Source: Giardia intestinalis
Lineage: Eukaryota
Strand: one strand, 5' to 3'
NCBI GenBank assembly: GCA_000002435.2
Contig: CM018792.1
Length of the DNA: 64,000 bases
Positions 29,601-52,942 of this stretch are shown here, piece by piece. Made by a program: the position numbers and the translations under genes. Positions within the stretch are counted from its first letter, which is position 1, and the number at the start of each line of letters is the position of its first letter. The notes beneath the pieces are model-generated. The model was not told the origin of the DNA. It did no database searches and saw nothing but the letters and a program-made list of their open reading frames with translations.

Positions 29601-31587
29601 ACGGCACAGAGGCCCCAGGAATAAACGAAGCGATTGCAAATGGAAGCAGTGAAATCAGAAATTCCTCAGTTGCAGTTGCGGGTAAAAATGAGCGCAAAAG
29701 GTCTTTGTGCTCCTCGCTAAAATCGATAACCATGTAACCATCGTGGCTAGCAGAGAAAATAGTATCTAATGAAAATAAAAATGCAAAGCAGGAGGCAAAT
29801 AGCTTACTCGTCATGCTCGACTCATGCTGTTGAAGACCAACCATATTACTTAGGTGCAGGTGTCGGCGAAACAATAAGAGCAATAATTGAGTGGCAAGGG
29901 GAACCATTGTATATGTTTCCGATATTGAAGAAGAGTCCTGAGTGTAGCATTCTTCTGAATTGACGGGGATTGGTGCAGATGATTTATCTTCTAGACAGTG
30001 CAAAACATAAAGTAATTGGATGCCGGAAAGAATTGTGTGCAATAACCTTACGCTGAGTAATTCTGAGCACAGCTCATCCATTAGTACTGCCGAAGTGCCC
30101 ACTGGATTTGAAAGGAACTCCGTCAAGACTTGCATCAGCCTGCAATAAGCATTGACAGCCTGCCTAAGAAGGGCATGCTGCGAAGTGTCCATCCGTGCGT
30201 CTCTTAGCATCAAGTGCAGATGCTTAGAGTGATGCTTGCTTGCATGTGTTATGTGAGCTATGATATCAGTTACATGTGTATTATTTTGAGAAACGGCACT
30301 TGGCACAGGAGAGGGATCAGATTTGAGGGATCGCCATGTGTAATCTAGAGCATGCACACATACAGCTAGATAGCAAGTCACATTAAGTGAAGATAAAGCA
30401 GCAAGGCCACTAGCTTCTGCACAAAGAGAGATATTGTGCTGTAAGGACGAAGGAGACGAGCTGTAGGAACTGACAAGTTCGGCACACACTCTGCCATAAT
30501 CCGCATGCAGCCAATCATCAAAGTAGGCAAACACAACGTGAATAAGTACGAAACGCTTGTATGCCTTCATATAAATTCTATTCGTAAATGCAGACAGTTT
30601 TCTCAGTGTATCGTGGGCATACAATGTATCTAGTATACTCTTAGATACTTCAGACACGCTGCCGAGCCGTTGCCCCTCCACCTGGTTAGGCAGACCAAGG
30701 CCCGCTGCCAAGTGGCAAAAGTGCGAGCCCCTGTTTGCAACCAGAGCAGCCAGGCTGTCCGGGGCGATACATGCAGAAAAAAGCCCCACCAATACCGTTG
30801 CGTTACGTAGCTCCGCCGCAGCCACACCGTTAATCCTGTCGGTTACGGCCTGCACATCAGAAAGCCTGCACATCAGAGAGTCGGCGTCGGCCAACTTGCG
30901 CGCCCGCCTGCATGTGAGAAGCACCTGGAAAGTGTCGCTCGCTGTAAGAAGCCTGGGGAAGGCCGCCGGGTCAGCGGGGGGCAGCCACGGATTGGCCGAC
31001 GAAGCGGCTCGATGGGCTGCGAACGCGCATGCGTCAGCCCGCAGAATCTCCAGCAGCGGAAGGCAAGCGCTGAAAGGCTCTCCGCAGCCCTTGCCAAAGC
31101 CCAGCAGCATGCACAGCAGCGCTGTACCACACGCATAAACGCTCAGAAACGGAGCTGCGTCAGTGCCCAGGGGAGCGGTCAAGACGTCCCGCACAGTGCC
31201 TACGCCCCCGATGACACAGAGCTCCGCAAGGGCTGCTCCGAATGTGGTGGCGTCGAGTAAATGCGCGCACACAAGGCACAGCAGCAGCCTTGTTGTAGGC
31301 CAGTTGAGGACGCATTCGCTGCTCTCCGGCTGGAGGTCCAGAATCCAGAGGACGTACGGCTGCTCCACCCCGAGCTGTAGGTCTGACAGCAGGACGATCC
31401 GCTCCAGCCTCTCGGGCCCCTCCCCCGCTGTGCGTATTGCAAGGCTCGCTGCGAAGGCACACGAGACAGGGCTGCGCCGTGCATCCTCGAGCAGGCCGTC
31501 ACTCAGCGCCAGCAGCTCCGCATCCTGCACGACGCCGCCGGTGGCGTGGTAGTTCGCCATCAGGGAGCGCAACGAAGACGCAAGCAT
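23686..31587 (-). CDS. PI3K-related protein kinase (PIKK family; ATM/ATR/TOR-like), about 2633 aa, with a FATC-like C-terminus.
   Basis: The kinase N-lobe is RLILKCGEDTVADYAVMQF. The catalytic loop is GLGDRHSCNILID. The activation segment is VHFIDFEAVFEY...VPFRLT. The C-terminus ...CMFGGWMAFL is FATC-like. The region upstream is helical-repeat (HEAT/FAT-like). The track start 31644 is TTG and the first ATG is at 31587. The first roughly 280 codons lie inside a GC-rich island, so the true start is uncertain. Confidence 0.85.
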   Translation of the reverse strand: MLASSLRSLMANYHATGGVVQDAELLALSDGLLEDARRSPVSCAFAASLAIRTAGEGPERLERIVLLSDLQLGVEQPYVLWILDLQPESSECVLNWPTTRLLLCLVCAHLLDATTFGAALAELCVIGGVGTVRDVLTAPLGTDAAPFLSVYACGTALLCMLLGFGKGCGEPFSACLPLLEILRADACAFAAHRAASSANPWLPPADPAAFPRLLTASDTFQVLLTCRRARKLADADSLMCRLSDVQAVTDRINGVAAAELRNATVLVGLFSACIAPDSLAALVANRGSHFCHLAAGLGLPNQVEGQRLGSVSEVSKSILDTLYAHDTLRKLSAFTNRIYMKAYKRFVLIHVVFAYFDDWLHADYGRVCAELVSSYSSSPSSLQHNISLCAEASGLAALSSLNVTCYLAVCVHALDYTWRSLKSDPSPVPSAVSQNNTHVTDIIAHITHASKHHSKHLHLMLRDARMDTSQHALLRQAVNAYCRLMQVLTEFLSNPVGTSAVLMDELCSELLSVRLLHTILSGIQLLYVLHCLEDKSSAPIPVNSEECYTQDSSSISETYTMVPLATQLLLLLFRRHLHLSNMVGLQQHESSMTSKLFASCFAFLFSLDTIFSASHDGYMVIDFSEEHKDLLRSFLPATATEEFLISLLPFAIASFIPGASVPSDFVSLYLKQISQLYDTNPRVQSYYKLICRIADSCHTVATLNQSAQTSRYMLAYIFFQYFLVQVCGEKYHLITTTISELCMEQICKQTSVAFCLFSSAYLPSLIINLYLPLSRTALSKELALLCVESRTPVMMSYPRLSVEDFVTVTGALAILSCVDSTIASALAYHASPKDLSLSDATLHDALVVAILFLTVLYADTEALAGAKTLKKVELVTSSIKAIKELVALPIFANVKPHKLFSEGIESYNGATAHIFRLLSVIFILMTALFSFSRDVLHRVQLLHTLVSSKKKGSAPAEMPISIFANLSNYTGFLFRITSLCHMKPLLGSICYREAYIDDEPKAPDVVALWNRLKVMYLQVIIYGIHTPVILESLLDYFGIFFYAVSTLVPGFLYTQLAVDMFLTLEEVIDTDQNNSIFTIYWLGYIRLLLEHSGETLTQLIELIIDGRRISEETKRVARLLVSIYRKENEMRHTQLYSSVDSQLHDVDDPAAVLALLELLVDASHTPCEFLWRVLIPLVIHVLNGLFVRSYLSLLITLLPHGANLFDQRGMLQIRGGGTPLAHLLLYIKAYQGRIENTKLKQSAEQVLKTYGTLLDYRTLNPSNGPRDSQKGPEGKVTRGSCGYFTDFITRVIEGGDLYAASCITELNEYFSTLGEDQKTVYISSKIYQRMQSFVELLPIVIRDTEKRHLLNTSLVITNASSFFAIFIDLFLKLLQKGVTQKNIKLAPEAQKHMAHVSDLWAIVEPYINVSQAIGAAFYDALLSLLLEYSDLSLLIDGIGRFLALFFAALITDHCKLVEHIESHFISSLYVTSVETLYSTIPSSDRLTNSNEKDCLAELEQDEPSMRDTLIGDVLDLRRFVAMKQIIELVAFQPYRFSKNSMELLHQIRISDEAIELDVISSFLIKTHFRKYFEEQEAASSWQTLVAELSPEVDRTLYMSRLDSSFEDSMSLTRTAPKTAQKPSVDYLTFLSGHSMLVGNPLRAIMIAGVYWAANEVTYKGVFVDILQYISRSYATVFSICFLKVFRPDAFFSILTLLAEGATDHLSTIATERKNAVMVLRTGVINKLIAGSAEQQKLIYNQDINDTSSNAQLVDRFYGISYTLLGSLYAAVSSYPLHDSFSIPQWRLHNNVINGVPESHTSCGTTATSIVTIRNLLHQYSNMLLRVSMWTELTQFLREQDFFDQMLLALDQFPANTHAHFIAQLRRHKSLLFQHNCQFLYKQILNLACARYRECRYTDLSVRLLVHEFIDNNLFDFAEDTQSFIIEAMFGELMVDLDGIEGKNSSIVSMSTRCSFVGNMYSALATYTFILAIIHRMLFRRPLGGPDSFSKADCWSRFYQKCLVTALSAWMLVVCSLTKLLAYNAQLLMDSNEKNKVSVSFLTSSLLYFAPATDFCLCMDKHQKVAGTIIELIEGTIGSGAGAASDEQKGIPGVEAHVLNFLLALGLDTLITEANEKLTEIIEGSPAILLQNQFHNICSMVIRLCDTKINLIAVEYSSMSVDVMKNHILNVIAKKLIPYSAHFDIAIRQFGVHMNRDYSLEEEALRHPVFNSLIKRIFAVLEAHEVYNPAYTRYIIFSTTMTNVLKYMQLEYAKKSLNTSKECLLPHIISGSFFLIPTLEAISSLREFEYSMTTDKRSPHQIDNHTECVSVLEHYYEYYSSRYAASYVTMVRHFSSKRAPLLFRMSRTKNDHGTRLILKCGEDTVADYAVMQFTEELAKCSVNTFFKPYFVAVLINIPKNQVSIIEHIDGNVVPIDELLTPVFMGAKTKAAEFINEQEPNEDGCFPTFDLFMASVTALSHMEMALSKTHPCRFIALSQKNQRMFATTLAHWCAVCIVTGLGDRHSCNILIDTDDGSVHFIDFEAVFEYPKLLSYAELVPFRLTALIAQLLGPTGIHGCFYWELVKMVSLIQENAPAFINVFYPLAIVRASLGYVRQVKEMLETQRAEEIVNAALAQAADSSRLSCMFGGWMAFL

Positions 31588-32192
31588 GAGCCCTTCTCGG
31601 CAGCCTCTTCGGTTGTCCGCCTGTCCGGGAATTATTCTTGCCAAATTGCATACGATTGCATTTTGAGATTTCGTCTCCTTCCTTGGTGGACTGGAGCTTC
31701 AGCGTAGCGTCGTGTCTCCCAGGCCCGTCCACGCAGTGGCAGGCTACAGAGCCCGTTTGGCTGTCGCACAATGCACTGGTCTACCGGGCACGCTGGGCAG
31801 CATCTTAGCGCCTCCGACGACGAGGAGCCACTGGCCCCTGGACTGCACCACTACGTCACCTATCGGGCACGCGCATGCTTCTTTCCGGGCCCCGTCCATC
31901 CAGCTGCCAGCCCCGGAGGCGGAGCAAGTCGGGAGACACCCCTCTGGCGAGAGCACGACGGACAGCAAGGGCCGGCAGCCTTGCCACGGTTGCCCTCCTC
32001 GGCAGAGAGCCCGGGCCATCGCCCACTCCCCGCGGTCTCCGAAGAGCGCTCGCCTCCTGGTCCACCGGTCCGCATGCGCATCTATTTGCCACGCTCTAGC
32101 AACGAAGGCCCTCACCGGTCTGGCTATCCTGCACTCGACGTGGAAGGTGTTTACATGCGTAATGCACCGGCCGTGGACCAAATCTTAACTTT

Positions 32193-33521
32193 ATGGCGCC
32201 CAGGGCGTCGTCGCCGGCGGAGGCTCCCTCCTTCCCGTCTGTGTCCTCTGCGCTGCAGATGCTTGTGCGGCCGCCTGTTCCAGCGTCAACAGGCGGGCAT
32301 GACCCCGGTGGAGCGAGTCGTCTCCGAGAGGGGCGCAGGGCCTGCGACCTGCGTTCTAGGCTGGGCCTTCTTCTGGGCCAGGCTGACGCGATGTCGGGGA
32401 GAAGCCGAGTGGGCCCGGAGACGCACTGCGCAAGGCTCCACCAGCTTCTAGCGCGGCTCGCAAGGCTGCAGGAAACAGACCGCTTGCTGGACGCCATTGA
32501 GTGTTCGAGTGCCTGCATGGCACAGATCAGCGACCCGGCCTGCCTCCGGTGCCTTCTTCGCGCACACTCCGCCCTAAGCATATCCCCGCCTCCGGCTGGC
32601 CGTGGCGTCTCTCTAGAGAGGCAGCGGCAGTGCATGGCGTCGTCCATCTGTGAGCACTTTTCAGCAGGAATCCGAGGGGCGCTGGACAGGATCCTTGCTT
32701 CGCGCCTCCGCGCCTACCACGAGACGCGCGCTCAAGCGCATCTTACGAAGCCAGAGGCCTCCGACCAACTGGCTAGCCTCCTGTCCGGCCTCCGCGTGGA
32801 GGATGCTGCCCCCATTTCGGCGCACTGGAGCGACCAGCTCTTCTACACGGCTCTCTGCCGCGAAGCAGCCGTTGTCTGCGAGTCCCTGTCTTCACTTGCC
32901 CTTTCGGTGTCGGAACAGGTTAGGCGCTGTATGCACTTGGGCGACAGCGGACCTTTGACTGCGCTGCTCCACGCCGCCAGGTCTTTCGTTTCTGCGTGCG
33001 AGCACGCCTTTTCTGTGTCCTTCCCGACTGGGCTGATGAGTGAGAGCGGAGAGGCAGGCCTTTTGCTGGGCGGGATCGAAGAGACGGGGCCCTACTTTTC
33101 TGCGCGATTGAAGCTGGCCCGGGCAAGGGGGCGGCCTCGTTTAATCGGGCGGCTGTTCGGTTGGTCCGCTGCGTCCCCCATCGAGGCATATGTAGAGCGT
33201 ATTCGTCAAAACTTCAGCGGCCCTGCAGCATGGGCTCCTCCCTACCCAGAGCCGGGCCAGAGCCTTGTGTCTGACAGCTCTGCTGCGAGGCGGTGGCACA
33301 CTACCGGCGCAGGCCAGCTCTTCGTCGACTTCCTTGTTTTGTTTCTGGGGTCAATCTTTGATGCATTTACTCTCGGGGATCAGATTGCAACCTTCCCCTC
33401 TATAGGCCTGTATCTCAGCAACAATCCAGTGGCGGAGGAAGGCGGGCTATTCGCACGGGTCTTCGCTACATACTCAGGAATGGTTGCCAGTGAAGCAGGA
33501 GGTCTAAGGGCTATCGAGTAG
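32193..33521 (+). CDS. Hypothetical protein (442 aa) inside the GC-rich island.
   Basis: True ATG at 32193 with aaatcttaactttATG upstream. The amino-acid composition is not purely Arg/Pro/Ala/Gly. No similarity I recognise. GC-rich DNA leaves many frames open, so caution is needed. Confidence 0.4.
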   Translation: MAPRASSPAEAPSFPSVSSALQMLVRPPVPASTGGHDPGGASRLREGRRACDLRSRLGLLLGQADAMSGRSRVGPETHCARLHQLLARLARLQETDRLLDAIECSSACMAQISDPACLRCLLRAHSALSISPPPAGRGVSLERQRQCMASSICEHFSAGIRGALDRILASRLRAYHETRAQAHLTKPEASDQLASLLSGLRVEDAAPISAHWSDQLFYTALCREAAVVCESLSSLALSVSEQVRRCMHLGDSGPLTALLHAARSFVSACEHAFSVSFPTGLMSESGEAGLLLGGIEETGPYFSARLKLARARGRPRLIGRLFGWSAASPIEAYVERIRQNFSGPAAWAPPYPEPGQSLVSDSSAARRWHTTGAGQLFVDFLVLFLGSIFDAFTLGDQIATFPSIGLYLSNNPVAEEGGLFARVFATYSGMVASEAGGLRAIE

Positions 33522-33820
33522 AGCCATTACTCTGTCCCGATGAGCCGATCCCACCTCGCACCCGTCGCCCGTGCAGCGCCGTCCCTCCGGGCACACGACA
33601 GGGCGCCTCGTGTGCGACCAGGCCAGCGGGCTTCTCCCAGGGGCAGCCCTCGGAGTGGGAGTCTCAGAGAGGAGGCCGCCGGGGCACCCCCACCCGCTGC
33701 ACGCAATCCGGTCCACACCACAGCCTCTCTACTGATACCCCTGTTCGTGGTGAGCGCGCTTGCAGTAACCTACCAGACCGGCAAGTGCGAGACGGTCGGT
33801 AGCACAGAGATCTGCACCCA

Positions 33821-35776
33821 GTGCAGGGCCGGGGCGTCCCGGTCGACGGCTTCTGCCGGCCCCCCGGCTCCATCCAGGCCGCGGCAGCCGGGTGCACCAA
33901 AGCGGGTGGGGCTGCCCTCGATAAGACGGCAACCACCTGCGGAAAGTGCGGCGATGGGTACTTCCTCTTCATGGGCGGGTGCTACAAGACAGAGAGTCAG
34001 CCCGGCAGCGAGATATGCACAACAGCCAGTAATGGACTGTGCACTGCTTGTAACACAGATAGTCAGTACATATTCCAGAACCCTGCTGCACCATCAGAGA
34101 AGGGTAGCGAGTGCATCTTGTGCTGGGATACTACAGATAGAAACGGGGTCATGAGAGTGGATAACTGTCTCAAGTGCACGGCACCTGGTGGCAATACAGG
34201 AGCTGCTAAGTGCACTGCCTGCACAGAGGGACACTTCCTACACACAGATGGGACGTGCCAGGCATGCGGCGCCGGTTGCTCCGAGTGCACGTCCAACACA
34301 GTGTGCACGCACTGCATACCTGGAAGGTACCTGAAAACTGGTGGCAGCTGTGTCGGTGATAACGGCTGTGACGCACAACACTATGCAGACCCGCAGAGCG
34401 GAGAGTGCAAGTCGTGCCCCACTGATACAGCGATACCGGAGTGCACCGCGTGTGCATACAATGATACCCTCAAGAAGCCCGTATGCAGCGAGTGCGACAG
34501 TGGACAAGCAAAGAATCTTCTCAAGAAGAAGGTCGACGGGACTGCGGAGTGCGTCGATGCTGCTGGGTGCGCAACTGTCGGACAGGACGGGACGCACTTT
34601 CGAAGTGACGGAGATACCAAGTGTATACTGTGCGGTGATAGCAGTGGGTCTGGCAACGACCAGGGCATAGCAGACTGCGAGATGTGTAGCAAGGAAGCCT
34701 CTCAGAAGCCGGTGTGTAAAGCATGCCTCCCTGGATTCTACTTGAGTAGCACTTGCAAGCCCTGTGCAGGAAACTGCGCAAAGTGTGGCTCAACAGGAAA
34801 CATACAGGACTGCACTGAATGCATGCCAGGGTACTTTCTAAAAACCGAGGGTGTAACAAAGGAGTGCGTCCCTTGTAGTGACACAGCCAAAGGTGGCATC
34901 GATGGATGCAGTGTCTGCTCGAATGATGGCAATACTTTCAAGTGCACTGACTGTAAGCCTAACTATAAGAAGCAGCCCAATGGAGGAGCAGGGGATGACT
35001 ATACGTGTGTGAAGGTGTGTGAAGACCCCACTGCCTGCGGGGGGACAGCTGGCTCTTGTGATGCAATAGTGATCGACAATGATGGAGTAGAGCATCACTA
35101 CTGTTCATACTGTGGGGAGAGTACTAAGGTACCAATTGATGGCATCTGTGCTACTGATAAGAAAGGTAATACTTGTAACAGTCATACATGTACACAGTGT
35201 GCTCAAGGGTACTTCTTATACATGAATGGCTGTTACAAGGTTGATACAGAACCAGGAAGCCTCATGTGCTCGAAAGCAACAACAGCTGGTGTCTGCACTA
35301 CTCCCAATGCCAACAATAGGTACTTCATAGTCCCAGAGGCAAAGGCTACTGATCAGTCTGTGTTGGCCTGTGGCAACCCCCTTGGCACACTAATAGGTAC
35401 TCAAGACAAAGCTAAGGCATACGTCGGGGTGGATGGCTGCTCCCAGTGTACAGCCCCGACACAGCTAGAGGCTCCTGGTATGACCTCCGCTGTGTGTACT
35501 GCCTGTGACAGTGGTAGGAAGCCCAACAAGGACGGCAGTGGGTGTGTGCTGTGCTCTGTGGGTGATTGTAAGAGCTGTGTGATGGATGATGTGTGTGGGG
35601 AGTGCAACAGTGGCTTCAGCCTAGACAGCAGTGGGGCCTCCTGCGTGTCCTCTGGCGCCAACAGGAGCGGGCTCTCCACGGGGGCCATCGCGGGGATCTC
35701 CGTCGCTGTCATCGTCGTCGTGGGGGGCCTCGTGGGCTTCCTCTGCTGGTGGTTCCTCTGCAGGGGGAAGGCATAA
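33821..35776 (+). CDS. Variant-specific surface protein (VSP), with an intact body but a disrupted 5' end.
   Basis: There are dozens of CXXC motifs, GYFLFMGGCYK and GYFLYMNGCYK (GGCY) motifs, and a C-terminal TM ending GFLCWWFLCRGKA-stop. The track start is GTG. The signal-peptide-like sequence SLLIPLFVVSALA and ...EICTQC lie upstream in another frame (33723-33830). Confidence 0.85.
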   Translation: MQGRGVPVDGFCRPPGSIQAAAAGCTKAGGAALDKTATTCGKCGDGYFLFMGGCYKTESQPGSEICTTASNGLCTACNTDSQYIFQNPAAPSEKGSECILCWDTTDRNGVMRVDNCLKCTAPGGNTGAAKCTACTEGHFLHTDGTCQACGAGCSECTSNTVCTHCIPGRYLKTGGSCVGDNGCDAQHYADPQSGECKSCPTDTAIPECTACAYNDTLKKPVCSECDSGQAKNLLKKKVDGTAECVDAAGCATVGQDGTHFRSDGDTKCILCGDSSGSGNDQGIADCEMCSKEASQKPVCKACLPGFYLSSTCKPCAGNCAKCGSTGNIQDCTECMPGYFLKTEGVTKECVPCSDTAKGGIDGCSVCSNDGNTFKCTDCKPNYKKQPNGGAGDDYTCVKVCEDPTACGGTAGSCDAIVIDNDGVEHHYCSYCGESTKVPIDGICATDKKGNTCNSHTCTQCAQGYFLYMNGCYKVDTEPGSLMCSKATTAGVCTTPNANNRYFIVPEAKATDQSVLACGNPLGTLIGTQDKAKAYVGVDGCSQCTAPTQLEAPGMTSAVCTACDSGRKPNKDGSGCVLCSVGDCKSCVMDDVCGECNSGFSLDSSGASCVSSGANRSGLSTGAIAGISVAVIVVVGGLVGFLCWWFLCRGKA

Positions 35777-43976: not shown

Positions 43977-44313
43977 ACAAAACCAGATTTTCACGCTCTG
44001 TGGCTATTGTCGTGCCATTATGGAATGCTAGGTACGCTTGCTGAGCATGTGATGCCAATAAGGTCGCAGAGGCAGCAAATCGTCGTATTGCAACAGTATT
44101 TTCCCGACTAATTATACTGTTTTCCAGCCCCAGGTCAACCCCATAGAGCCAGCTAGCGAAGCTCGTGGCCAGATGCTCGTCGTTCATCTATAACTTAGGT
44201 TCTAAATTGATTTTATTCGTCATGTTTTACAAGGAAGAAGCAAGTCACGCTAATTATGCAATTAATTCACTTGTTGCTTTGCAAACACTACAACTTGTAG
44301 TATGATACCGGCG

Positions 44314-45510
44314 TTATTTGTCGTCATATTCAATCCCAGGTCCAGCTGGAGGCGGCCCTTGACGCCCTGTTCTAGTAAACGCCCCGGAGCGGGCCTGGAG
44401 CGCGATTGCGCGGCGCGCGTCTGCGGCGGCGCCTCTGAAGAGCCCGCGCTCGGCGGCGTTGTGGGAGCCACAGCCCGGGCAGCGGTAGAGGTGGTGGCGC
44501 CGGGCGACAAAGAGCCCGCCGCACTCGTGGCATGCGCAGTCGACGAAGACGCCCCGGTACTCGGGCGGGACCGCAAGCGATCCCCGGAGCTCCTCCAGGC
44601 GCGCCTCGTAGAGCTCCCTGTCCTGCCCGAAGAGGACGAGCCGGCGGCAGACCGGGCACTTGTAGTTCGCCCCACCCAGGCGAAAGACGGCCTCGTAGCA
44701 GTGGCGGTGGCACGAGTGGCGCCCGCAGGGAAGGACGATGTACGGGTAGATGTTGTCCCGGAGGCCGTCGAGGCAGTAGACGCAGTTCCCGGGGTCCGGC
44801 GCGCACGCGTGAACCTGGCCAAGGGCGACTGTGTGGCATGTCCCGCAACGCTCGCAGTGCTCCGAGTACCCCGGAAGGCCCTGCCGGCACGTCCCGCAGC
44901 GGGCGCAGTGGAAGCTCGGACGCCCCTCGCGGCCCATTCCGCAGATGAGGCGACACGTCTCGCAGTAGCGCGTCCCGAAGGGCATCTGGCAGTGTGTGCA
45001 GCGGAGCCCGATGGGGCCGGTGGCGCGGCAGAAGAGACAGAAGACCTCTGCCGTGCGGGTCCGCGGGAACTCGTGGTCGTCGTGGGAGGCATCGTGGCAG
45101 AAGCGGCATAGAGAGCGCTCTCCGCAGACTGCGCAGTAGAGGAGGCAGCCCCGGACATAGTGTGGGCAGCCCACGGAGAGGCCCTGCTTGTGTGCGGCAT
45201 AGAGGTAGTGCGAGGCAGGGAGCGCCGGGTCCCGGGCGACCCGGCCGGCGCCCGCTGCGACCCGGATCGCGTAGGGCAGGGCGGGATCGTACGCCTCGAG
45301 CAGGCAGACGGGCTCTGCGACCTCCTCCCAGGAGCCCTGCAGCCCGCGGCCAGAGCCCTCGAGGATCGCCGAGATAAACGTCTTGCGCGGGCACCGCTGG
45401 CTCGGCTCGGCAGGATCGCCGCCGGGAGGGACGGTAAAGAGGGTGGTCAGGAGGACGCAGATTCGGGAGTCCGTAGGAACGCGTTCGACATCTGAAGCGC
45501 TATAGAGCAT
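44314..45510 (-). CDS. RING finger and CHY zinc-finger E3 ubiquitin ligase (Pirh2/RCHY1-like).
   Basis: The CHY finger is CPHYVRGCLLYCAVCGERSLCRFCHD, and a CTCHC-like zinc region follows. The RING-H2 is CVYCLDGLRD...LPCGHSCHRHCY...CPVCRR. A C-terminal zinc ribbon CHECGG...CPGCGSHN is present. True ATG at 45510. It lies in GC-rich DNA. Confidence 0.85.
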   Translation of the reverse strand: MLYSASDVERVPTDSRICVLLTTLFTVPPGGDPAEPSQRCPRKTFISAILEGSGRGLQGSWEEVAEPVCLLEAYDPALPYAIRVAAGAGRVARDPALPASHYLYAAHKQGLSVGCPHYVRGCLLYCAVCGERSLCRFCHDASHDDHEFPRTRTAEVFCLFCRATGPIGLRCTHCQMPFGTRYCETCRLICGMGREGRPSFHCARCGTCRQGLPGYSEHCERCGTCHTVALGQVHACAPDPGNCVYCLDGLRDNIYPYIVLPCGRHSCHRHCYEAVFRLGGANYKCPVCRRLVLFGQDRELYEARLEELRGSLAVPPEYRGVFVDCACHECGGLFVARRHHLYRCPGCGSHNAAERGLFRGAAADARRAIALQARSGAFTRTGRQGPPPAGPGIEYDDK

Positions 45511-45544
45511 CTTTTTGCAGGCGCGCAGGGAACGGCGCAGGGAA

Positions 45545-46494
45545 TCACAGGGGAAGGCGGACGTCTCCGAGAACCACCGTCGTCACGGTGTGCGAGTGCC
45601 CGTTGTAGGCGTAGACATACTTGTCGGTCGGGTCGCCCGCGATGTTCCAGAGCTTCGCGCTCTTGTCTGCGGCCGTGATGATGCACGCCGAGTCCGCACT
45701 AAAGGCGCTCGCCCAGACCGTGGCCTCGTTTGTCCCCAGCACGCGGGCGCGCGTCAGATAGCAGTCCTCCTCAAGAGCAACGGACCAGATCTTGCAAGTC
45801 TTGTCGGCGCTGCACGTCGCCAGGACGGCCCCGTCCGGAGAGAGGTTGACGTGCATCACGGCATCCAAGTGCGCCTGGATGGACTGCTGAGGCGCGAAGA
45901 AGTGGCTGCTGCCCTTGTAGGCGTAGACGCGGACGATGCCCCGCCCGTCAGAGCACGCGAGGATTTGAGCCCCCGGGGCGCAGCTGACCGAACGGACGCC
46001 GACGTCGCACTCGAACGCGACCGTCGTTGCGAAGGGGTGCCGGGGCTGGCGCAGATCGTACGCAAGCAGGCGACCCTCCTGATCTCCCGTGACGAGGAGC
46101 GCCGCATCCCCCCGGTCGCACGCGACAGAGAGCGTGTTGAGGGCCGCGTCGTGGACGATGCAGCTAGTCTGCTTCCCCCCGCGGGTGTCGAAGAGCAGAA
46201 GGCGTCCGTCCTCGCCCACGCTGGCGACGGTCGAGTCGCCCTGGAGAAAGCAGCATCCTGTGACGTTGGAGAGGTGTCCGTCGAAGGCGGCGACTGGGTC
46301 CCGCCCGGCAGAGCCGAGGTCATAAACGGTCGTGGCGGAGAACCCGGCTGCAAGCAGGACTTTCCGGTCCGCGCTGAGGGCCAGCCCGTTGGCGACCTTT
46401 CCGAAGTTCAGCGTGCGGAGCGCACTTTCAGAGGTCGGCCGCCAGAGCTTGATCGACCCGTCGTAGCTCCCCGTGGCAATGACGACCTCTTCCA
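45545..46494 (-). CDS. LST8: LST8-like 7-bladed WD40 protein (TOR complex subunit homolog).
   Basis: Collinear with LST8: VVIATGSYDGSIKLW; LLAAGFSATTVYDLGSAGRDPVAAFDGH...VGEDGRLLLFDTRG; ATCSADKTCKIWSV; ITAADKSAKLWNI. The start is taken at the internal MEEVVIATG ATG, about 46492-46495 (my coordinate is +/-2). The 250 upstream codons of the track ORF are GC-rich open frame. The initiator agtcaaaaaATG abuts the upstream gene's stop. Confidence 0.8.
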
Positions 46495-46502
46495 TTTTTT
46501 GA

Positions 46503-47843
46503 CTAGAAGCGTCTCTGAGGGTCGAAGCTTGGAAGCAGCGTGGCCAACAGCAGGAGCACAAGCCTTGCGGCGCTGTGCATGCGGGGCCCCTGGGGCTGCG
46601 GAAGATTGATGTTCGCCTCCTCGAGGAGCTTGAAGACAGCCGGGGCTTGCGCGACCCTCCGGTAGCCCCCATGGGCCCGCTGCTCGCAGTCCTCGCGGAA
46701 GAAGTCGTCGAAGAACGCGTGGTAGAGGACGCCCTCGGCCCCCACGGGGTCTGCAGACTTGATGAACTCGACGATTGGCGCGGGCGGCAGGAAGTTCGCG
46801 GTGCTGTAGATGAGGGCCTTGGCGGCGTACGTGACGACGTAGGTCTTCCAGTAGAGGGCGGCCAGGGCGGCGAGGCTGGGAACGCTCGCGAGCTGAAAGA
46901 TGTAGATGACGCAGACGGTCCAGAACGTCGAGAGGACGTGGACGGCGAAGCCGATGGGGGAGACACGGACTGCCAGGAGCAGGTCTGGAGACAGGAGCAG
47001 CGGCCAGGGGGCGGCAAGTCGAGTGGCCACGGCGAGGTGATGGAGGGCGCGCCCGACGGCCACGAGAGGAAGGAGGAGCGTGTAGAGCGTGCTTCCGGCC
47101 CGCACGTACAGCCCGACCTCAAGAAACTGGCGGCGCGAAAACAGCCGGCGAGACTCCTGGCCACCCGAGGGCGTGATCGGGGGCATCTGGACGACGCGCA
47201 CAAAGAACGGCCCCTGGACCCCGGATCGCTGCAGAAACGTGCCGTAGTGCTGCGCAAGGACGCCCATGGGAAGGACCCAGGGAGCCGGATGAAGGCCCCG
47301 GAGGGTGCGGCAGACAGCCAGCGCCGGGTCCTCCAAGGGGCCGCCCAGAAGGTCTGCGGGGTCCAGACTGGCGCGCGTTGACCCTCGGAGGTCTGCTGCG
47401 GCGTACCCGATGTCCCGACAGCGGGCGCTTGCCTCGGGGGCGGCAGCCAGCCCGGGACCTCCAGGCTGTGCCAGGGGGTGGGTGTATCGGAGCCGGGTGA
47501 CGTGCTGCTTCACAACAAGGAAGAACGTGAGGAGCTCGGCGTCGCCCCGGACACGCGTCTGGACACGCCGGAGGTCTTCAAGGGTCAAGTGGAGCGGGGG
47601 GAGCCACTGGAGGAGGTTACGGCGAGACCTGGTGACGACCTGGTAGAGCTCGCAGCAATCATAGTCGGGGAGGGGCGTGGGTGCCGCAGCGGGCCCTGGG
47701 GGCTCGAGCAGGGAAAGGTTGGCCAGGGCTGCAAAGACAACCTCCCGGAGGCCCAGCTGGCCGTGGAGTGTCAGAAGCAGCGCCCGAATGCGTCCCCGGT
47801 GGGCTGTGAGGATGGCCGTCGGGATGCCATCGCTGATAGGCAT
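46503..47843 (-). CDS. Hypothetical membrane protein, 446 aa.
   Basis: True ATG at 47843 with atcaaaattataaATG upstream. Several hydrophobic helices are present (VHVLSTFWTVCVIYIFQLASVPSLAALAALYW). It lies in the GC-rich island. Confidence 0.5.
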   Translation of the reverse strand: MPISDGIPTAILTAHRGRIRALLLTLHGQLGLREVVFAALANLSLLEPPGPAAAPTPLPDYDCCELYQVVTRSRRNLLQWLPPLHLTLEDLRRVQTRVRGDAELLTFFLVVKQHVTRLRYTHPLAQPGGPGLAAAPEASARCRDIGYAAADLRGSTRASLDPADLLGGPLEDPALAVCRTLRGLHPAPWVLPMGVLAQHYGTFLQRSGVQGPFFVRVVQMPPITPSGGQESRRLFSRRQFLEVGLYVRAGSTLYTLLLPLVAVGRALHHLAVATRLAAPWPLLLSPDLLLAVRVSPIGFAVHVLSTFWTVCVIYIFQLASVPSLAALAALYWKTYVVTYAAKALIYSTANFLPPAPIVEFIKSADPVGAEGVLYHAFFDDFFREDCEQRAHGGYRRVAQAPAVFKLLEEANINLPQPQGPRMHSAARLVLLLLATLLPSFDPQRRF

Positions 47844-47854
47844 TTATAATTTTG
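47844..47854. promoter_or_regulatory. 11-bp AT-rich spacer (TTTATAATTTTG) between divergent start codons.
   Basis: CAT 47841-47843 and ATG 47855-47857 flank it. It is the only AT-rich sequence within several hundred bp of GC-rich DNA. Confidence 0.45.
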
Positions 47855-48667
47855 ATGCCCCCCGGCATGCAACCTGACGACCCCCCGGCACGGCCAGCGG
47901 GATGCTGCCACAGGTTCGGAGCTGCGCTTCTCGCGATGCCCCGGTGTGCACTCTGCCTTCTTGCCCTCGAGCTGCTCGCCGGCCTTTCCCTGTCGCTGGC
48001 CTCGCTGGCGGGGGGCTTCCAGGCTGCAATCTGGCTCTCCATCAATATGGAGCGTGCATACAAGGACCTGGAGCTCTGGCGGCTGGTCAGCGCCCCTGTT
48101 CTCCCGGAGTCCGTCTTCCAGGGAGCCCTCTTCGCCTTGATCGGCTGGAACTCTGCGTTCCTACTGGAGCGGACCGTCGGCTGGAAGGTTTTTCTCGGGC
48201 TCCTCGCCTTTGCGGTCCCCTGCGTCTCCCTTCTGACGTCGGCCCTCACGGCCCTCCTCGCCCTCACCCCCGGCCTCCGGGACGTCCCGTACTTCGCCGC
48301 CCAGTGGACAAGCAATGCGAACATGGGGCCCGGACCCCTGCTGGTATTCCTGACGATTATGGGGATCCGGCTGTCCGGGCATAAGTCGTTCACTTGCTGC
48401 TTCCGGTGCCCCATCCCGGCGTGGGGCGTCATCCTCGTCACCGTCCTCATGGCCCAGGTGATGCTCTATCCCCCCTGGGAGGGCGTTCCCTACACGCTCT
48501 CGGGCGTCGTCGCAGCGTATGTCCTGCCGCGAAGAGCCTTCAGGAGGCCTTTGTCCCCGGAGGACGAGGCTCTCGTGGCCAGCGAGGACGGGCCCGAGGA
48601 CGTCCGGCCTACAGAGACACTTCCGCCTCCTGCCGAGGAGTTCCGGGGCCGGGGGAGGAGCCTGTGA
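47855..48667 (+). CDS. Rhomboid/derlin-superfamily polytopic membrane protein, probably catalytically inactive.
   Basis: ELWRLVSAPVLPESVF...LFALIGWNSAFLLERTVGWKVFLGLL matches the WRL...FLH...N...G..LE..G..FL architecture of rhomboid/derlin TM1-3. I see no clear GxSG. The track start 47852 is TTG and the ATG is at 47855. Confidence 0.5.
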   Translation: MPPGMQPDDPPARPAGCCHRFGAALLAMPRCALCLLALELLAGLSLSLASLAGGFQAAIWLSINMERAYKDLELWRLVSAPVLPESVFQGALFALIGWNSAFLLERTVGWKVFLGLLAFAVPCVSLLTSALTALLALTPGLRDVPYFAAQWTSNANMGPGPLLVFLTIMGIRLSGHKSFTCCFRCPIPAWGVILVTVLMAQVMLYPPWEGVPYTLSGVVAAYVLPRRAFRRPLSPEDEALVASEDGPEDVRPTETLPPPAEEFRGRGRSL

Positions 48668-49901
48668 CCGGTGTAAACCCCTCCCACGCAACTCCGTGGC
48701 GCCTGCTTCGGTTCATCAGGCGCAAACTACTCGTGGCAAAGCCGGGTAGGCTGTTGAGCCGGTGCTTGCAAAGGAGGTCGAGGGTCTTGTCTACCGGGCG
48801 ACTCAGGGGCCGTTCCAGACGCTGCCAGCGGAGGCAGAGCACCTGGGTCTCGAGGCGCGCGGCGAGCGCTCGTCGCAGTCGGAGGTTTCGGTCTGCAAAT
48901 GCGCGGCGCAGACGGTCGAGCGTGGGGGCGGCGCTGCCGGCCATCATCTCGCCGACGATGCGACGGGTCTCGTCGAATGCAGAGCCCCCAGAGGCCGGGC
49001 GGCTGGGCACTCCGCGGTGCGTGGAGAGGCGGCAGATCCCCGGCGCACGCCCACCTCTGCCCGCAAGCGACCCGCGGGCCCGAGGAAGCACAGGCGCGGC
49101 CGAGGAGGGCTCAACCGCAGACGGCACCCCGTCGTCGTTGAGGTCTGCCACCAGGCGCTCGATGTTTGCAAACTCGAAGGCCTCCTCGACCGCCTTGCTG
49201 ACCCCAACGACGCTGAACTGCCGCTGACGGGCGTGTGTCCTCGAAGGCCCGACAGGCGCCGATGCCAGCGGGAGCAGGGGCGCTGCGGCGTAGAGCCCGA
49301 CGTTCTGGACCGCCTGGAGGTGCGTCACGTCGTCGTGCTCGTCGTCCGGGGAGACAACTGGGCGGGAAAAGTAGGGCGCGCCCTGTGCGTCTGCGGGCGA
49401 AAGCGTCCGAAGGCCCTTGACAAGGTCGTCGTTTGCGCGAAAGCGGTTCTTCACGGGGCGGAGGCGTAGGGGAATGCCCGAGCGGGGCCCCAGGACCCCG
49501 CCGATCCCTGCGATGTTCGTTGGATAGGCCGGCTCGAAGCCGACGAAGCTGGAGGCCTCCTCGCTCGCGAAGGCGGCGCACGGGTCTGTAGGGAGCGGGG
49601 CCATGCGAGTTGAGCCTATGTGCGACTCGCGGTCCTGGAGGTAGAGAAGGGGCGGCTGGCCCGCGTAGATCTGGGCTGCAGTCGCCTGCTCAAGAGACAC
49701 GGCGCTGCTGCGCGTCACAAGGGCTGCTCTGTGACGGGGCGTGGGGGCCCCGAGAGCGACCTCGAGGGCGGCGAGCCTCTGTTCGCGCACCGCAATCGCG
49801 GTCATTAGAGGCGCCTTCCGAGCCGAGAGCTCGTCGAGGCGGCGGCTGATGGCCCAGAGCTCCTGGATTGCCGCGCCAAGCAGGGTGCTCTCGGGGTCCA
49901 T
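48609..49901 (-). CDS. Hypothetical protein, about 431 aa, in the GC-rich island.
   Basis: The first ATG (MDPESTLLGAAIQELW) is at about 49901, preceded by cggaatttacaaATG and divergent from the ankyrin gene. Its 3' end overlaps the 47855..48667 gene by about 59 bp. Because of the GC-rich context, it may be a spurious open frame. Confidence 0.35.
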   Translation of the reverse strand: MDPESTLLGAAIQELWAISRRLDELSARKAPLMTAIAVREQRLAALEVALGAPTPRHRAALVTRSSAVSLEQATAAQIYAGQPPLLYLQDRESHIGSTRMAPLPTDPCAAFASEEASSFVGFEPAYPTNIAGIGGVLGPRSGIPLRLRPVKNRFRANDDLVKGLRTLSPADAQGAPYFSRPVVSPDDEHDDVTHLQAVQNVGLYAAAPLLPLASAPVGPSRTHARQRQFSVVGVSKAVEEAFEFANIERLVADLNDDGVPSAVEPSSAAPVLPRARGSLAGRGGRAPGICRLSTHRGVPSRPASGGSAFDETRRIVGEMMAGSAAPTLDRLRRAFADRNLRLRRALAARLETQVLCLRWQRLERPLSRPVDKTLDLLCKHRLNSLPGFATSSLRLMNRSRRHGVAWEGFTPVTGSSPGPGTPRQEAEVSL

Positions 49902-49955
49902 TGTAAATTCCGATCGCAAGTTCATGTGAAATTGCAGCCAACACAAAATTCCTGG

Positions 49956-52175
49956 ATGCCCGACGACTCGCAATACAAGCGAAACCTCGACGCCTGGTTT
50001 GAGGCGGCGCGGTCCGGAGAGATCAAGTTCACCGTTGTCCATTGCAAGCAGTACCAGGGGGCCGTGCTCCCGGACGGGCCCGGGCTCACGGCGCTACACC
50101 TTGCAGCCCAGGGCGGCCACACAGGCACGGTCAAGTACCTTCTCCCGTACGAGAAGGACATCCGGAGCGACACAGGCTGGACCGCCCTCATGTCGGCGGC
50201 CATGCACGGCCACGATGCGGCGGTCTCAGCCCTCGCGCCCTACCAGGCTGGGAGGCAGCTTTCCGCCGCGGCCTTCGGGTACCCAGCTGGTGCGACGGCC
50301 ATTGAGATCGCCGCCTCCCGCGGCCACCTCTCGACCACGAAGGCACTCCTGGCGTTCGACCAGGAGCGGCCGTACCTCGCCGAGCCCCTTCTCGCCGCCC
50401 TCGATCTGAACGAGCCGGCCCTGAGGGCCCACGTGGCCGCAGGCGCCCAGACCCGGGACTGCCTGGGCCGCACACCCCTCCACTATGCCGCCCTCTCTCC
50501 GCGAGACCCCACCGTCTCGGTAACGCTCCTCGCCGACCTCTACCGCGGAACACGGGATGCGTCGGGGAAGACGCCCCTCATGCTTGCCGCAGAGTTCGGG
50601 CGCGCAGACGCCGTCCGAGTGCTGATTGAAAGGACGCCCGAGGACGTCGGCGCGGCGATCCCCGACAACCCGAGCTGCGGCGACCACGAGGGCTCGACCG
50701 CCCTGATCCTCGCAGCAGACGCAGGCCACCTCGCGTGCGTGAAGCACCTCATCGACGCCGAAAATGCCCAGCCCAACAAGACCGGAACAACTGCGATGAT
50801 GTTCGCCGCACACCGGGGCTTCCTCGAGATTGTCGGGGCCCTCGCGCCCTTCGAGGCCAACCTCCAGAGCACGGCGCCTCTCGGCCACTCCCCCGGGAAG
50901 GCCACTGCGCTCCAGCACGCAGCCCTGGCCGGCCACGCGCCTATCGTCGGGCTCCTCGCTCCCCTCGAGCACGGGCTCCGGAACGATGCAGGCCAGTCTG
51001 CATACGACATCGCCGTCCAGCACGGCCACCGGCAATGCCAGGAGATTCTGCAGGTCTACGAGGACGAGGTCGAGCCGTGCATCGTCACCGCCCTCATCCT
51101 CGACAGCCGGAGCGAGGAGTTCAACCTGGTCACCGACAAGCCCCTTACCGAGGCGATCCAGCGCCTTGCAGATCTCCTCGGCGTGCGTGACTCGGACAGC
51201 TTCTTCCAGGCGATCGAGGACATCCTCTCCCAGGGAGATGCGATCCGCGAGCTTGAGAAGCTCCGGGTCGAGCTCCAGGTCGTGGCTCAGGAGCGCGATG
51301 ACCTTCGTGCAAAGGTGGACGAGCAGGCGGCGGCGATTCGCGAGATGAAGGGCCATCTGTACGACATGTCCGAGCTCGAGAAGAAGGTTGCCGCCGCAGA
51401 GGCGAGGTATGCAGAGAAGGTCCGCGACACCCAGGCGATGGAGGAGGAGGTCGAGGAGGTCAAGGCCGCCGCCCGCCAGGAAGTCGAGGCCGCGCGGGGC
51501 GAGGTCGAGCTCATGAATGCACACGTCCGCGAGCTCGAGAAGCACATCACAGACCTCCAGAACAGCGACGACTCCGTCCTGGGGCAGCTGATAACGGCCC
51601 AGGAGCGCGTCAAAGAGCTCGAGGGAGAGCTGGCCCGGGCCGAAGCCGCGGGAGGCAACGCGGCGCGCGAGCTGGACGAGACGCGCCGCGAGCTCGACGC
51701 CCTGAGCGCAGAGCACGAGGACGCAAAGAAGCTCCTCGAGGAGATGGAGGAGATGCAGCGCAACCTTCTCGGGATGCAGGAGGCGATGGAGCAGTTCGAG
51801 GCCGAGGGCATCACGGTCGAGCGCTACGCAGACCTTCGCGCAGAAGTCGAGGCCCTGCGCGAGCGGCTCTTCGACAAGTCGCGCAAGGTGACCGAGGCCA
51901 ACTCCGTGATTTCGATGTTGATCGACGACATGTGGATCTGCAACAAGCGTCTGAGCGACACGCTCAAGAAGGCCACCGAGTCCAGTAAGGCGCTTGAGGA
52001 CGGCGACGCAGGCCCGCGGGGCTCCCAGCACTTTGCGATGCCAGACCTCATCGACGAGATGTCGAACCTCATCCGCAGCGGCTCCCTCGGGCGGTCGGCG
52101 GTCGGGGGAGACCTGGGGCTCGGAGAGCTGGACCGCGAGGCCCACGCAGGGCCGGCGAGGTTCAGCTACCTGTAG
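49956..52175 (+). CDS. Ankyrin-repeat plus C-terminal coiled-coil protein (Giardia protein 21.1 / GASP-like architecture), about 739 aa.
   Basis: There are at least 7 ANK repeats (GWTALMSAAMHGHDAAVSAL; TPLHYAALS; KTPLMLAAEFGRADAVRVLIE; STALILAADAGHLACVKHLIDAE; TTAMMFAAHRGFLEIVGAL; TALQHAALAGHAPIVGLL). About 250 aa of coiled coil follows (ELQVVAQERDDLRAKVDEQ...). The track start 49926 is GTG and the first ATG is about 49956. Confidence 0.8.
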   Translation: MPDDSQYKRNLDAWFEAARSGEIKFTVVHCKQYQGAVLPDGPGLTALHLAAQGGHTGTVKYLLPYEKDIRSDTGWTALMSAAMHGHDAAVSALAPYQAGRQLSAAAFGYPAGATAIEIAASRGHLSTTKALLAFDQERPYLAEPLLAALDLNEPALRAHVAAGAQTRDCLGRTPLHYAALSPRDPTVSVTLLADLYRGTRDASGKTPLMLAAEFGRADAVRVLIERTPEDVGAAIPDNPSCGDHEGSTALILAADAGHLACVKHLIDAENAQPNKTGTTAMMFAAHRGFLEIVGALAPFEANLQSTAPLGHSPGKATALQHAALAGHAPIVGLLAPLEHGLRNDAGQSAYDIAVQHGHRQCQEILQVYEDEVEPCIVTALILDSRSEEFNLVTDKPLTEAIQRLADLLGVRDSDSFFQAIEDILSQGDAIRELEKLRVELQVVAQERDDLRAKVDEQAAAIREMKGHLYDMSELEKKVAAAEARYAEKVRDTQAMEEEVEEVKAAARQEVEAARGEVELMNAHVRELEKHITDLQNSDDSVLGQLITAQERVKELEGELARAEAAGGNAARELDETRRELDALSAEHEDAKKLLEEMEEMQRNLLGMQEAMEQFEAEGITVERYADLRAEVEALRERLFDKSRKVTEANSVISMLIDDMWICNKRLSDTLKKATESSKALEDGDAGPRGSQHFAMPDLIDEMSNLIRSGSLGRSAVGGDLGLGELDREAHAGPARFSYL

Positions 52176-52186
52176 TAAACCGTCGT

Positions 52187-52582
52187 TTACTGGGCGGGGA
52201 CCCCGTAGAGCTGGAGTCCGGTCGTGTAGGCGCCCGAGCCCCCGAAGTTCTCGAGGATCGTGTAGCGCACGAAGCGCGCCACGCGGGGGGACGGAAGGGT
52301 GCACAGGTGGTCTCCGCCCCGGTGCGGGAGGTCCATCTCGGCGAGGGGCTCGGGGCAGGCAGGGTCGGCCCCGCACGCAAAGGAGACGCGCCGGGGGTTC
52401 TGGCTGTTTTCACCGTGGAGGAAGATGCCCACGCGCGTGAGGCAGACCGGCTGGCCCATGTCGATGACGACGTGCTGGGGGAGGGGCGCGTAGACCGACG
52501 TGAACCAGCAGACCGAGGGATCCTGGCGCACAAGGTTCTGGACCCCCGAGTTGTGGTGGTACTGCGAGCTGAAGTCGACCAC
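52187..52582 (-). CDS. APC10/DOC-domain ORF lacking an ATG start.
   Basis: DFSSQYHHNSGVQNLVRQDPSVCWFTSVYAPLPQHVVIDMGQPVCLTRVGIF...NPRRVSFACGAD aligns to the DOC domain of APC10 ([37 protein letters not shown]...). The track start is GTG. The upstream in-frame extension has no ATG before a stop. No CAT occurs on the plus strand in 52583-52720. Confidence 0.45.
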   Translation of the reverse strand: MVDFSSQYHHNSGVQNLVRQDPSVCWFTSVYAPLPQHVVIDMGQPVCLTRVGIFLHGENSQNPRRVSFACGADPACPEPLAEMDLPHRGGDHLCTLPSPRVARFVRYTILENFGGSGAYTTGLQLYGVPAQ

Positions 52583-52942
52583 CCGCGCGCCGTTCTCGGC
52601 GACGCCGAAGTTGCGGGGAAGCAGAGCGCCCGCGCGATGATCTTTGCTTGACTCAGATAAATAGATATAGATATCTTATGAGTTGTCACTGGCAAATAAC
52701 CAGCACTCGATTAAAAACACGTGGACAGGACAGGGCACAAGTGAGCAGCCAAGGTAGATGTCATATTTATACTAATGGATTGTCCAAAAAGCTACTGTAA
52801 ACAATGCTAAAAAGCCCTAGTAAATAGTCGATTATAAGGTTACAGTAGTACAACCACAGAAGTAAATAATTAGTTATGGAGTGAAATGCATTCACAATTT
52901 GTGACGAATCTATAACGTTCCGCAAATATCTAACGCTTATGT

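Follow-up and report, generated by a model that had tools for sequence, protein, structure and literature searches.

The mouse Fxy gene, which straddles the pseudoautosomal boundary, is the textbook case of GC-biased gene conversion (gBGC), and GC-rich recombination hot regions are known from yeast chromosomes. Among the diplomonads, Spironucleus salmonicida has a compact, mostly AT-biased genome with gene-dense G+C-rich segments, which hold genes with high G+C at synonymous third positions (GC3s) together with GC-rich non-coding DNA; neither lateral transfer nor an optimal-codon set explained these segments, and their cause was left open (Andersson et al. 2007, PMC1805757). Giardia genes span 39-81% in G+C and 26-99% in G+C at third codon positions (GC3), with C- and G-ending 'optimal' codons (Li et al. 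2021, PMC8393687). In Giardia duodenalis, the conversion tracts inferred between sub-assemblages AI and AII (AI-to-AII) have a median length of 3.3 kb (interquartile range 1.8-5.8 kb, 76 events), are non-subtelomeric and are enriched in GC-rich genes and in genes for variant-specific surface proteins (VSP) (PMC12669663). Here we analyse a 64-kb window of a G. duodenalis assemblage A chromosome (64,000 nucleotides of contig CM018792.1, assembly GCA_000002435.2, deposited as Giardia intestinalis), in which seven genes form a GC-rich island of about 8.3 kb, hereafter island 2; a smaller island of 3.4 kb in the same window, island 1, serves as comparator. With a probability of roughly 85%, we conclude that the cause of these islands is regional and non-translational. 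The most likely mechanism is gBGC, although whether it is specifically this one looks evenly balanced from the sequence comparisons set out below.

Positions 44334 to 52636 hold 67.4% G+C, against 45.6% in the remainder of the window. The 1-kb profile lies at 61-70% from 44 to 52 kb and at 41-47% on both flanks, the 200-bp profile rises at ~44300 and falls at ~52600, and the maximum-likelihood change points are strong on either side, with G+C passing from 0.41 to 0.71 on the left (z = 13.5) and from 0.68 to 0.42 on the right (z = 11.8). A first-pass annotation, made from the letters of the window, had described a GC-rich block of about 8.3 kb with an abrupt end, and both profiles and change points bear this out, as does a recount of the 60-nt line at 45001, with its 43 G/C; the right edge, which had been placed at 52620, lies instead at ~52636. 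The annotation had also seen a switch within a few base pairs to a spacer of about 30% G+C: the edge is indeed sharp, but the spacer averages ~42% and reaches 30-37% only in stretches. The flanking genes were correctly described as AT-normal, and their composition is ordinary; by Pfam they encode POLE, a GPN-loop GTPase (ATP_bind_1) and a giant ankyrin/coiled-coil protein. Our independent count of the tightly packed genes inside the island is likewise seven, with intergenic gaps of 7-54 bp between them and bounding spacers of 337 and about 300-360 bp. Giardia genes average 48.95% G+C (standard deviation, SD, 5.2%; PMC8393687). Each of the seven neighbours lies ~3.3-3.8 SD above this mean, which rules out a chance arrangement.

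The window was compared with public short-read (Logan) contigs of independent runs. Lineage labels (AI, B-like, third lineage) were assigned from identity levels and from two run accessions, SRR21529642 and SRR3177990, which are named in papers on G. duodenalis clinical isolates and sub-assemblage AII, the second being listed as AII (PMC9618722). Contigs 99.98-100% identical to the window, from many runs, are taken as AI/WB-like since they are distinct from the AII contigs, which are 99.5% identical to it. Three contigs (L007, L018 and L030) at ~75-78% identity fit the published A-versus-B distance and are called B-like, while two others (L019 and L031), at ~70-72% identity and 37-39% G+C, represent at least one additional lineage. 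Background GC3 differs markedly where AT-normal orthologs are compared: A has 0.42-0.45 and the B-like sequences have 0.41-0.43, but the third lineage(s) just ~0.29-0.31.

Many of these short-read contigs, from different samples, stop within ~30-40 nt of the edges of the island, as might be expected if it came from faulty assembly or from contaminating DNA attached to Giardia sequence. However, contig L032 covers 36127-46976 at 100% identity, through the left edge, L008 and L020-L029 run through the right edge at 99.99-100% identity, and the gene order is kept in the B-like contigs. Because independent contigs cross both edges, mis-assembly and contamination were rejected, and we consider the probability of either to be negligible. 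The contig ends themselves cluster within ~30-40 nt of the edges (44339-44371 and 52626) in many runs and three lineages (contigs L001-L008, L018, L019, L030, L033 and L034); three AII-type contigs consist of precisely island 2 (8288 bp, 44339..52626), and flank and island contigs share ~30 nt, the kind of overlap left where a de Bruijn graph branches. A GC-dependent coverage step and local heterogeneity are the candidate causes of these breaks.

The shift in base composition extends to all codon positions of island 2. Three-base periodicity is strong across the island and the GC3 of its genes is 0.79-0.92, and G+C at first (GC1) and second (GC2) codon positions is raised as well, to 0.64-0.72 against 0.48-0.56 in the flanking genes and to 0.43-0.56 against 0.35-0.44, respectively. 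The fraction of Gly, Ala, Arg and Pro (GARP) is 0.30-0.41 in the island 2 proteins against 0.17-0.26 in the flanks, that of Phe, Tyr, Met, Ile, Asn and Lys (FYMINK) is 0.11-0.16 against 0.20-0.28, and the conserved LST8-like protein, too, is GARP-enriched when compared with its fungal orthologs. The first-pass annotation had proposed weighing GC3 against GC1 and GC2 for each gene, and had held that codon selection would be a sufficient explanation if the enrichment were confined to third positions and the genes were among the most highly expressed in the genome. Since first and second codon positions, and the make-up of the proteins with them, have moved in all seven genes, third positions are not alone in being enriched, and the first half of that proposition falls. 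Its view that the cause is regional rather than gene-level gains from this all-position shift, and also from the intragenic edge, the GC-rich non-coding spacer and the lineage-specific AT-to-GC bias of island 1.

Since the 7-54-bp spacers of island 2 are too short to inform on non-coding DNA, the 605-bp spacer of island 1 was used instead. The left edge of island 1 (~30656) falls within the open reading frame (ORF) of a PIKK-family kinase gene, whose frame is the sole stop-free frame of the six over 30656-31644 and the one with the best coding score. Within the island, its first ~310 codons (30656-31587) have GC1/2/3 of 0.68/0.52/0.72, against 0.49/0.37/0.46 for the other 2260 aligned codons. 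The 605-bp spacer is 46% identical between A and B-like sequence; its G+C is 62.5% in the former, 42.2% in the latter and 27.7% in the third lineage, used as outgroup. The 442-aa gene that follows has a B-like ortholog with GC1/2/3 of 0.57/0.44/0.40. The 28.9-kb B-like contig L030 keeps the gene order and lacks island 1 (PIKK N-terminus 42-43% G+C, 442-aa ortholog 46-47%), and the orthologous DNA as a whole has 33-47% G+C in the B-like lineage (L030 8163-10900) and the third lineage (L031 1-2300).

With L031 as the outgroup for island 1, a gap-free three-way codon alignment was polarised by parsimony. On the A lineage, the PIKK N-terminus has undergone 152 AT-to-GC against 28 GC-to-AT changes (53:9, 34:9 and 65:10 at the three codon positions), and the 442-aa gene 150 against 17; in the remainder of the PIKK gene the ratio is about 2:1 in both lineages. 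Parsimony against an outgroup rich in A/T raises the AT-to-GC counts in all parts of the alignment, and the meaningful quantity is thus the contrast between this ~2:1 background and the 5-9:1 of the island. Protein change is accelerated as well: the PIKK N-terminus has 54 A-specific amino-acid changes against 21 B-specific ones, and in the island 1 genes the lineage-specific changes of the A branch are 2-2.6 times those of the B branch. On these polarised counts, island 1 is a product of AT-to-GC substitutions on the A branch. Its substitutions are biased towards G/C at synonymous, non-synonymous and non-coding sites, which is the pattern by which gBGC is recognised, and the intragenic edge, the GC-rich non-coding spacer and the lineage-specific bias at all positions together establish that the cause of island 1 is regional, not translational.

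Island 1 adjoins a VSP gene, which lies between the PIKK-side genes and POLE and is missing from the syntenic B-like contig (L030 8106-9953), where a single 451-aa gene separates POLE and PIKK. Contig L031 of the third lineage (1316-9252) gives the PIKK ortholog in two pieces, ORFs of 906 and 1708 aa with ~90 bp between them; the gene may truly be split, or the break may come from a frameshift or from faulty assembly.

Homologous replacement would give sharp edges and would exchange part of a gene collinearly and without gaps, and the islands could thus have come from outside, by introgression from a GC-rich Giardia relative or by horizontal acquisition. The GC-rich left arm of chromosome C of Lachancea kluyveri is a precedent for such an origin. 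However, the genes are ordinary eukaryotic or Giardia-type genes, the PIKK N-terminus is continuous with its own C-terminus, and the B-like lineage has island 2 in synteny, as rich in G+C as in A and at the usual A-B divergence. In island 1, the fraction of sites with a state shared by A and B against the third lineage is 0.187, compared with 0.208 in the adjacent part of the PIKK gene, and only the A branch is longer; sharing at the normal rate together with a single lengthened branch points to acceleration in place and not to an outside donor. Terminal repeats, tRNA genes and mobility genes are also missing: when signs of a mobile element were sought, a repeat search of 43900-53100 gave only short chance repeats, none of them at the edges, a tRNA scan found no tRNA genes, and Pfam scans found no mobility domains. 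We therefore regard a foreign origin as very improbable.

Island 2 is GC-rich in both A and the B-like lineage. The B-like contig L007 carries three of its genes in identical order at 69.8% G+C, the left edge has its counterpart at the corresponding position of L030, and GC3 is alike in A and B-like sequences (0.85-0.91 in island 2 genes, about 0.40-0.45 in flanking genes); in the third lineage, contig L019 passes from 20-37% to 70% G+C in its last 30 nt, which is weak evidence of a homologous right edge. At four-fold sites, A and B-like sequences are 44-56% identical in the island 2 genes and 43-53% identical in the flanking genes. The synonymous-site comparison with orthologs, which the first-pass annotation had called for, is thus informative: about half of the four-fold sites have turned over, and yet island 2 is equally GC-rich in the B-like lineage. 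Such turnover with equal GC3 in both lineages means that the composition is actively maintained, and on this comparison it is best described as an equilibrium under a force that has persisted since the A/B split at least.

Within assemblage A, 31 fixed differences separate the window (AI) from three AII-type contigs (L001-L003) over 44339-52626, and all of them are AT/GC exchanges. Transitions account for 29 of the 31, none exchanges G with C or A with T, and 21 are synonymous and 10 non-synonymous; the window has A/T where AII has G/C at 20 sites, and the reverse holds at 11. When polarised by the B-like sequence, 11 changes run from GC to AT and 2 from AT to GC, a count that comes from few sites and is biased at third positions, whereas at codon positions 1 and 2 only, all six changes run from GC to AT (6:0). 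Third positions being near saturation, trustworthy polarisation is limited to these six changes, which hint at mutation towards A/T in island 2 and at a fixation bias that counters it. This AI-AII comparison covers island 2 only, as exact-match look-ups of the flanks gave just AI-type contigs.

An AT-to-GC bias at all sites, faster protein change, a gene cut by a compositional step, a composition kept up through turnover and an island born on one lineage make up the classical signature of gBGC. We infer a conversion-driven bias, with the islands as hot domains of recombination or conversion. Indirect evidence for such domains comes from the published AI-to-AII tracts, given their enrichment in GC-rich genes (PMC12669663). 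The bias would act on a segment of DNA, fixing G/C over A/T at synonymous, non-synonymous and non-coding sites alike, and the segment would be one in which recombinational repair is unusually frequent, or in which the homologous copies of the genome in this polyploid cell with two nuclei convert one another unusually often. Island 2 would then be a long-lived compositional domain, whose seven unrelated genes, with almost no spacers, have been driven to ~67% G+C. Conversion tracts would end in the long, poorly alignable AT-rich spacers on either side, while the 7-54-bp spacers inside would be no barrier to them. In this older island, the preference of Giardia for C/G-ending codons would be superposed on the regional bias, and it may act more effectively where recombination is frequent. 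It is tempting to speculate, and we do so tentatively, that gene conversion in Giardia chromosomes has separate hot domains, a few kb long and sharply delimited, which come and go over the time in which assemblages diverge. Island 1 would then be one that arose in A beside a newly inserted VSP gene, and island 2 one that is older than the A/B split.

Several observations weigh against gene conversion as the cause. The edges are step-like (<50-100 bp, and <50 bp for each of the two edges of island 2), and G+C does not decay into POLE or the 230-aa gene, 300-360 bp from island 2; the final 300 codons of POLE, 360 bp away, have a GC3 of 0.42-0.46. From conversion tracts radiating from a hotspot, gradients would be more natural than steps, and the idea that spacers act as barriers cannot account for the intragenic edge of island 1. 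In addition, the outgroup-polarised substitution counts cover island 1 and not island 2, for which a homolog search with the LST8-like protein was dominated by other WD40 proteins and a chimeric four-protein query gave only PIKK orthologs and one CHY-finger match as possible outgroups, and the AI/AII polarisation draws on few sites, with its bias at the saturated third positions. Lastly, the four-fold sites of island 2 have C 0.50 against G 0.32 on the coding strand, with C again above G in the B-like sequence, and its relative synonymous codon usage (RSCU) is, codon by codon, a near-copy of the published 'optimal codon' set with a high codon adaptation index (CAI) (PMC8393687 Table 4). For CTC the values are 3.22 in the island and 2.96 in that top-5%-CAI table, for GTC they are 2.72 and 2.27, and ACG exceeds ACC in both. 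A strand-symmetric conversion bias predicts neither the excess of C over G nor the match to optimal codons, and the excess of C suggests an additional effect linked to codons or to transcription.

Some of these points favour a serious rival, namely a regional mutation spectrum shifted towards G/C without any fixation bias, which could stem from replication timing or an origin, from a repair polymerase, or from transcription or chromatin. Step edges suit a chromatin or replication domain better than conversion tracts, and the coding-strand excess of C in island 2 could be transcription-associated. Moreover, a mutational bias explains equally well why all sites are shifted, why a non-coding spacer is GC-rich, why an edge can fall inside a gene and why island 1 was born on one lineage. 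In contrast, the AI/AII changes polarised in island 2 run in the opposite direction, towards A/T, although their numbers are small. To our knowledge, mutation is AT-biased in almost all organisms studied. We therefore judge this explanation unlikely, without dismissing it.

The codon usage of island 2, in turn, would fit translational selection gene by gene, with seven highly expressed genes optimised to C/G-ending codons. It follows the optimal-codon set of the species, as its near-identity with the top-5%-CAI table shows, and C exceeds G at the four-fold sites of both A and B-like sequences. Lafay and Sharp, in 1999, reportedly put the 40-100% range of GC3 in Giardia down to translational selection. 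Against it, the bias extends beyond synonymous sites to GC1, GC2 and amino acids, and seven adjacent, unrelated genes on both strands have a common shift with step edges. LST8-like, E3-ligase-like and 21.1-type ankyrin proteins would, in addition, not be expected among typical high-abundance proteins. In island 1, the shift stops inside a gene, takes in non-coding DNA and ignores the optimal-codon set, as G-ending codons are at least as frequent as C-ending ones; its silent sites are about strand-symmetric (C 0.28-0.29, G 0.32-0.39). The match of island 2 to the optimal codons is itself partly circular, since the genes behind the published table were chosen for a CAI in the top 5%, not for measured expression (PMC8393687). 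Translational selection is thus an improbable explanation for the islands; on top of a regional bias, however, codon selection may contribute to island 2.

The features discussed are collected in Table 1.

Table 1. Coordinates of the two islands, their genes and spacers (positions are those of the 64-kb window)
Feature	Coordinates	Strand	Remarks
GC-rich island 2	44334..52636	.	67.4% G+C; maximum-likelihood change points
Left AT-normal spacer	43977..44313	.	43% G+C, 337 bp; POLE stop to CHY-finger gene stop
CHY zinc-finger protein (RCHY1/Pirh2-like), 398 aa	44314..45510	-	Pfam zf-CHY E=1.2e-8; GC1/2/3 0.68/0.56/0.83
LST8-like WD40 protein, 316 aa	45545..46495	-	Pfam WD40; GC3 0.85
Hydrophobic protein, 446 aa	46503..47843	-	without Pfam family; GC3 0.82
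Membrane protein, 270 aa (or 243 aa)	47855..48667	+	without Pfam family; GC3 0.83
Protein of unassigned function, 430 aa	48609..49901	-	GC3 0.79
Ankyrin-repeat + coiled-coil protein (Giardia '21.1'-type architecture), 739 aa	49956..52175	+	Pfam Ank_2 E=2.8e-47; GC3 0.86
Antisense ORF, 716 aa	50226..52376	-	non-coding by-product; codon-aligned mirror frame of ankyrin gene
Discoidin / F5-8 type C-like ORF, 131 aa from GTG	52187..52582	-	GC3 0.92
Right AT-rich spacer	52637..52942	.	contigs L008-L029 cross
GC-rich island 1	30656..34010	.	63.5% G+C; assemblage-A-lineage specific; comparator
PIKK-family kinase gene (PI3/PI4-kinase + FATC)	23686..31587	-
Non-coding spacer inside island 1, 605 bp	31588..32192	.	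stops in all six frames; negative coding score; no periodicity
Gene in island 1, 442 aa	32193..33521	+	GC1/2/3 0.66/0.58/0.72
VSP gene adjoining island 1	33821..35776	+	CRGKA tail; 27 CXXC motifs

Among the genes of island 2, the CHY-finger gene has its last ~7 codons beyond the island edge and a B-like ortholog in contig L007. The best named matches of the LST8-like protein are the LST8 proteins of fungal TOR complexes (31-33% identity), and its exact sequence occurs only in assemblies of public sequencing runs (Logan contigs), the two runs named above among them; a literature search gave no identifier for a Giardia LST8. The convergent genes of 270 and 430 aa share 59 bp at their 3' ends (48609-48667). 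For the last ORF of the island, the earlier label 'APC10-like' is unsupported: its Pfam match to F5/8 type C (discoidin) is sub-threshold, and among solved structures it is closest to 'putative chitobiase' domains from bacteria, which hint at a bacterial origin. This ORF (52187-52660, minus strand) has no in-frame ATG and stays open for 26 codons upstream of its GTG before a stop; it could begin at a codon other than ATG, contain an overlooked intron or have lost its start codon by decay.

The first-pass annotation had reported a 716-aa antisense ORF and many nested ORFs in island 2, and these exist. Its statement that every antisense and off-frame reading is open was too strong, as the long antisense ORF is specifically the codon-aligned mirror frame of the ankyrin gene. 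Random sequence of 67% G+C has a mean open stretch of 45 codons, and 716 codons would occur with a probability of ~1e-7. The mirror frame is open because its stops correspond to the sense codons TTA, CTA and TCA, which number 0-9 per 1000 codons in the island 2 genes against 49-58 in the flanking genes; the final such codon of the ankyrin gene, at 50226, coincides exactly with the stop of the antisense ORF. Spurious antisense ORFs are thus a by-product of codon bias. Elsewhere in the window, a milder rise in G+C (52-55%) is seen at 8800-13000, where three adjacent genes (8844-9902, 9957-10817 and 11720-12646) have GC3 of 0.56-0.60; this is possibly a weak or decaying island.

Where and whether Giardia recombines is a long-standing question, and both sex and meiosis are debated in this organism. 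If the islands are footprints of biased conversion, a composition scan of the assemblage genomes would locate and date historical hot domains of exchange, and GC islands would amount to a genome-wide fossil map of homologous exchange in a protist of disputed sexuality. A further effect of such islands would be protein change without adaptive value, of which the PIKK N-terminus would be an example. In practical terms, a high GC3 or CAI in Giardia is no sign of high expression unless position is controlled for, and the published expression proxies (CAI, 'optimal codon') may be confounded by location in a GC island. Moreover, gene finders will call spurious antisense ORFs in GC-rich blocks, and the short-read breaks at island edges may contribute to the under-assembly of GC-rich parts of the Giardia genome.

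How, then, do these islands compare with the systems already described? Vertebrate isochores resemble them in their regional heterogeneity of G+C and in the correlation of GC3 with non-coding G+C. However, isochores extend over >100 kb, and the Giardia islands, of 3-8 kb, are tens to hundreds of times smaller, with far sharper edges. As isochores in the vertebrate sense are homogeneous over >~100 kb, this class was rejected for islands of 8.3 and 3.4 kb. Spironucleus, a related diplomonad, offers G+C-rich, gene-dense segments that include non-coding DNA, although it differs in genus, genetic code and base level, and its report is without what we find in Giardia, namely a sharp multi-gene island with mapped edges, an edge inside a gene and lineage-polarised substitutions. 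The codon-usage trend of Giardia genes is shared by island 2, whose RSCU matches the high-CAI set (PMC8393687); codon-usage studies, however, treat genes independently and invoke expression, while the islands are contiguous, affect GC1, GC2 and non-coding DNA, and in one case end inside a gene. In the non-subscription literature, we found no prior description of sharply bounded islands, an intragenic edge or the lineage-specific birth of an island in Giardia; searches for GC islands or isochore-like structure there led only to codon-usage studies at gene level and to the Spironucleus report.

The AI-to-AII conversion tracts come from the same species, and the islands, at 3.4 and 8.3 kb, have lengths of that order; island 1, moreover, abuts a VSP gene. 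That study gives an enrichment at gene level (median G+C 0.541) and no discrete islands of 64-67% (PMC12669663). The likeness to the mouse Fxy gene and to the yeast domains lies in the PIKK gene, which is partly inside a GC-enriching domain, has a compositional step within its length, and combines an AT-to-GC bias at all codon positions with accelerated amino-acid change; for Fxy and yeast the high recombination rate was measured, while the Giardia islands are known from their sequence. Thus, the wide variation of GC3 in Giardia and the G+C-rich segments of Spironucleus were already known, and the islands described here belong with the GC-rich domains of the recombination or gBGC type.

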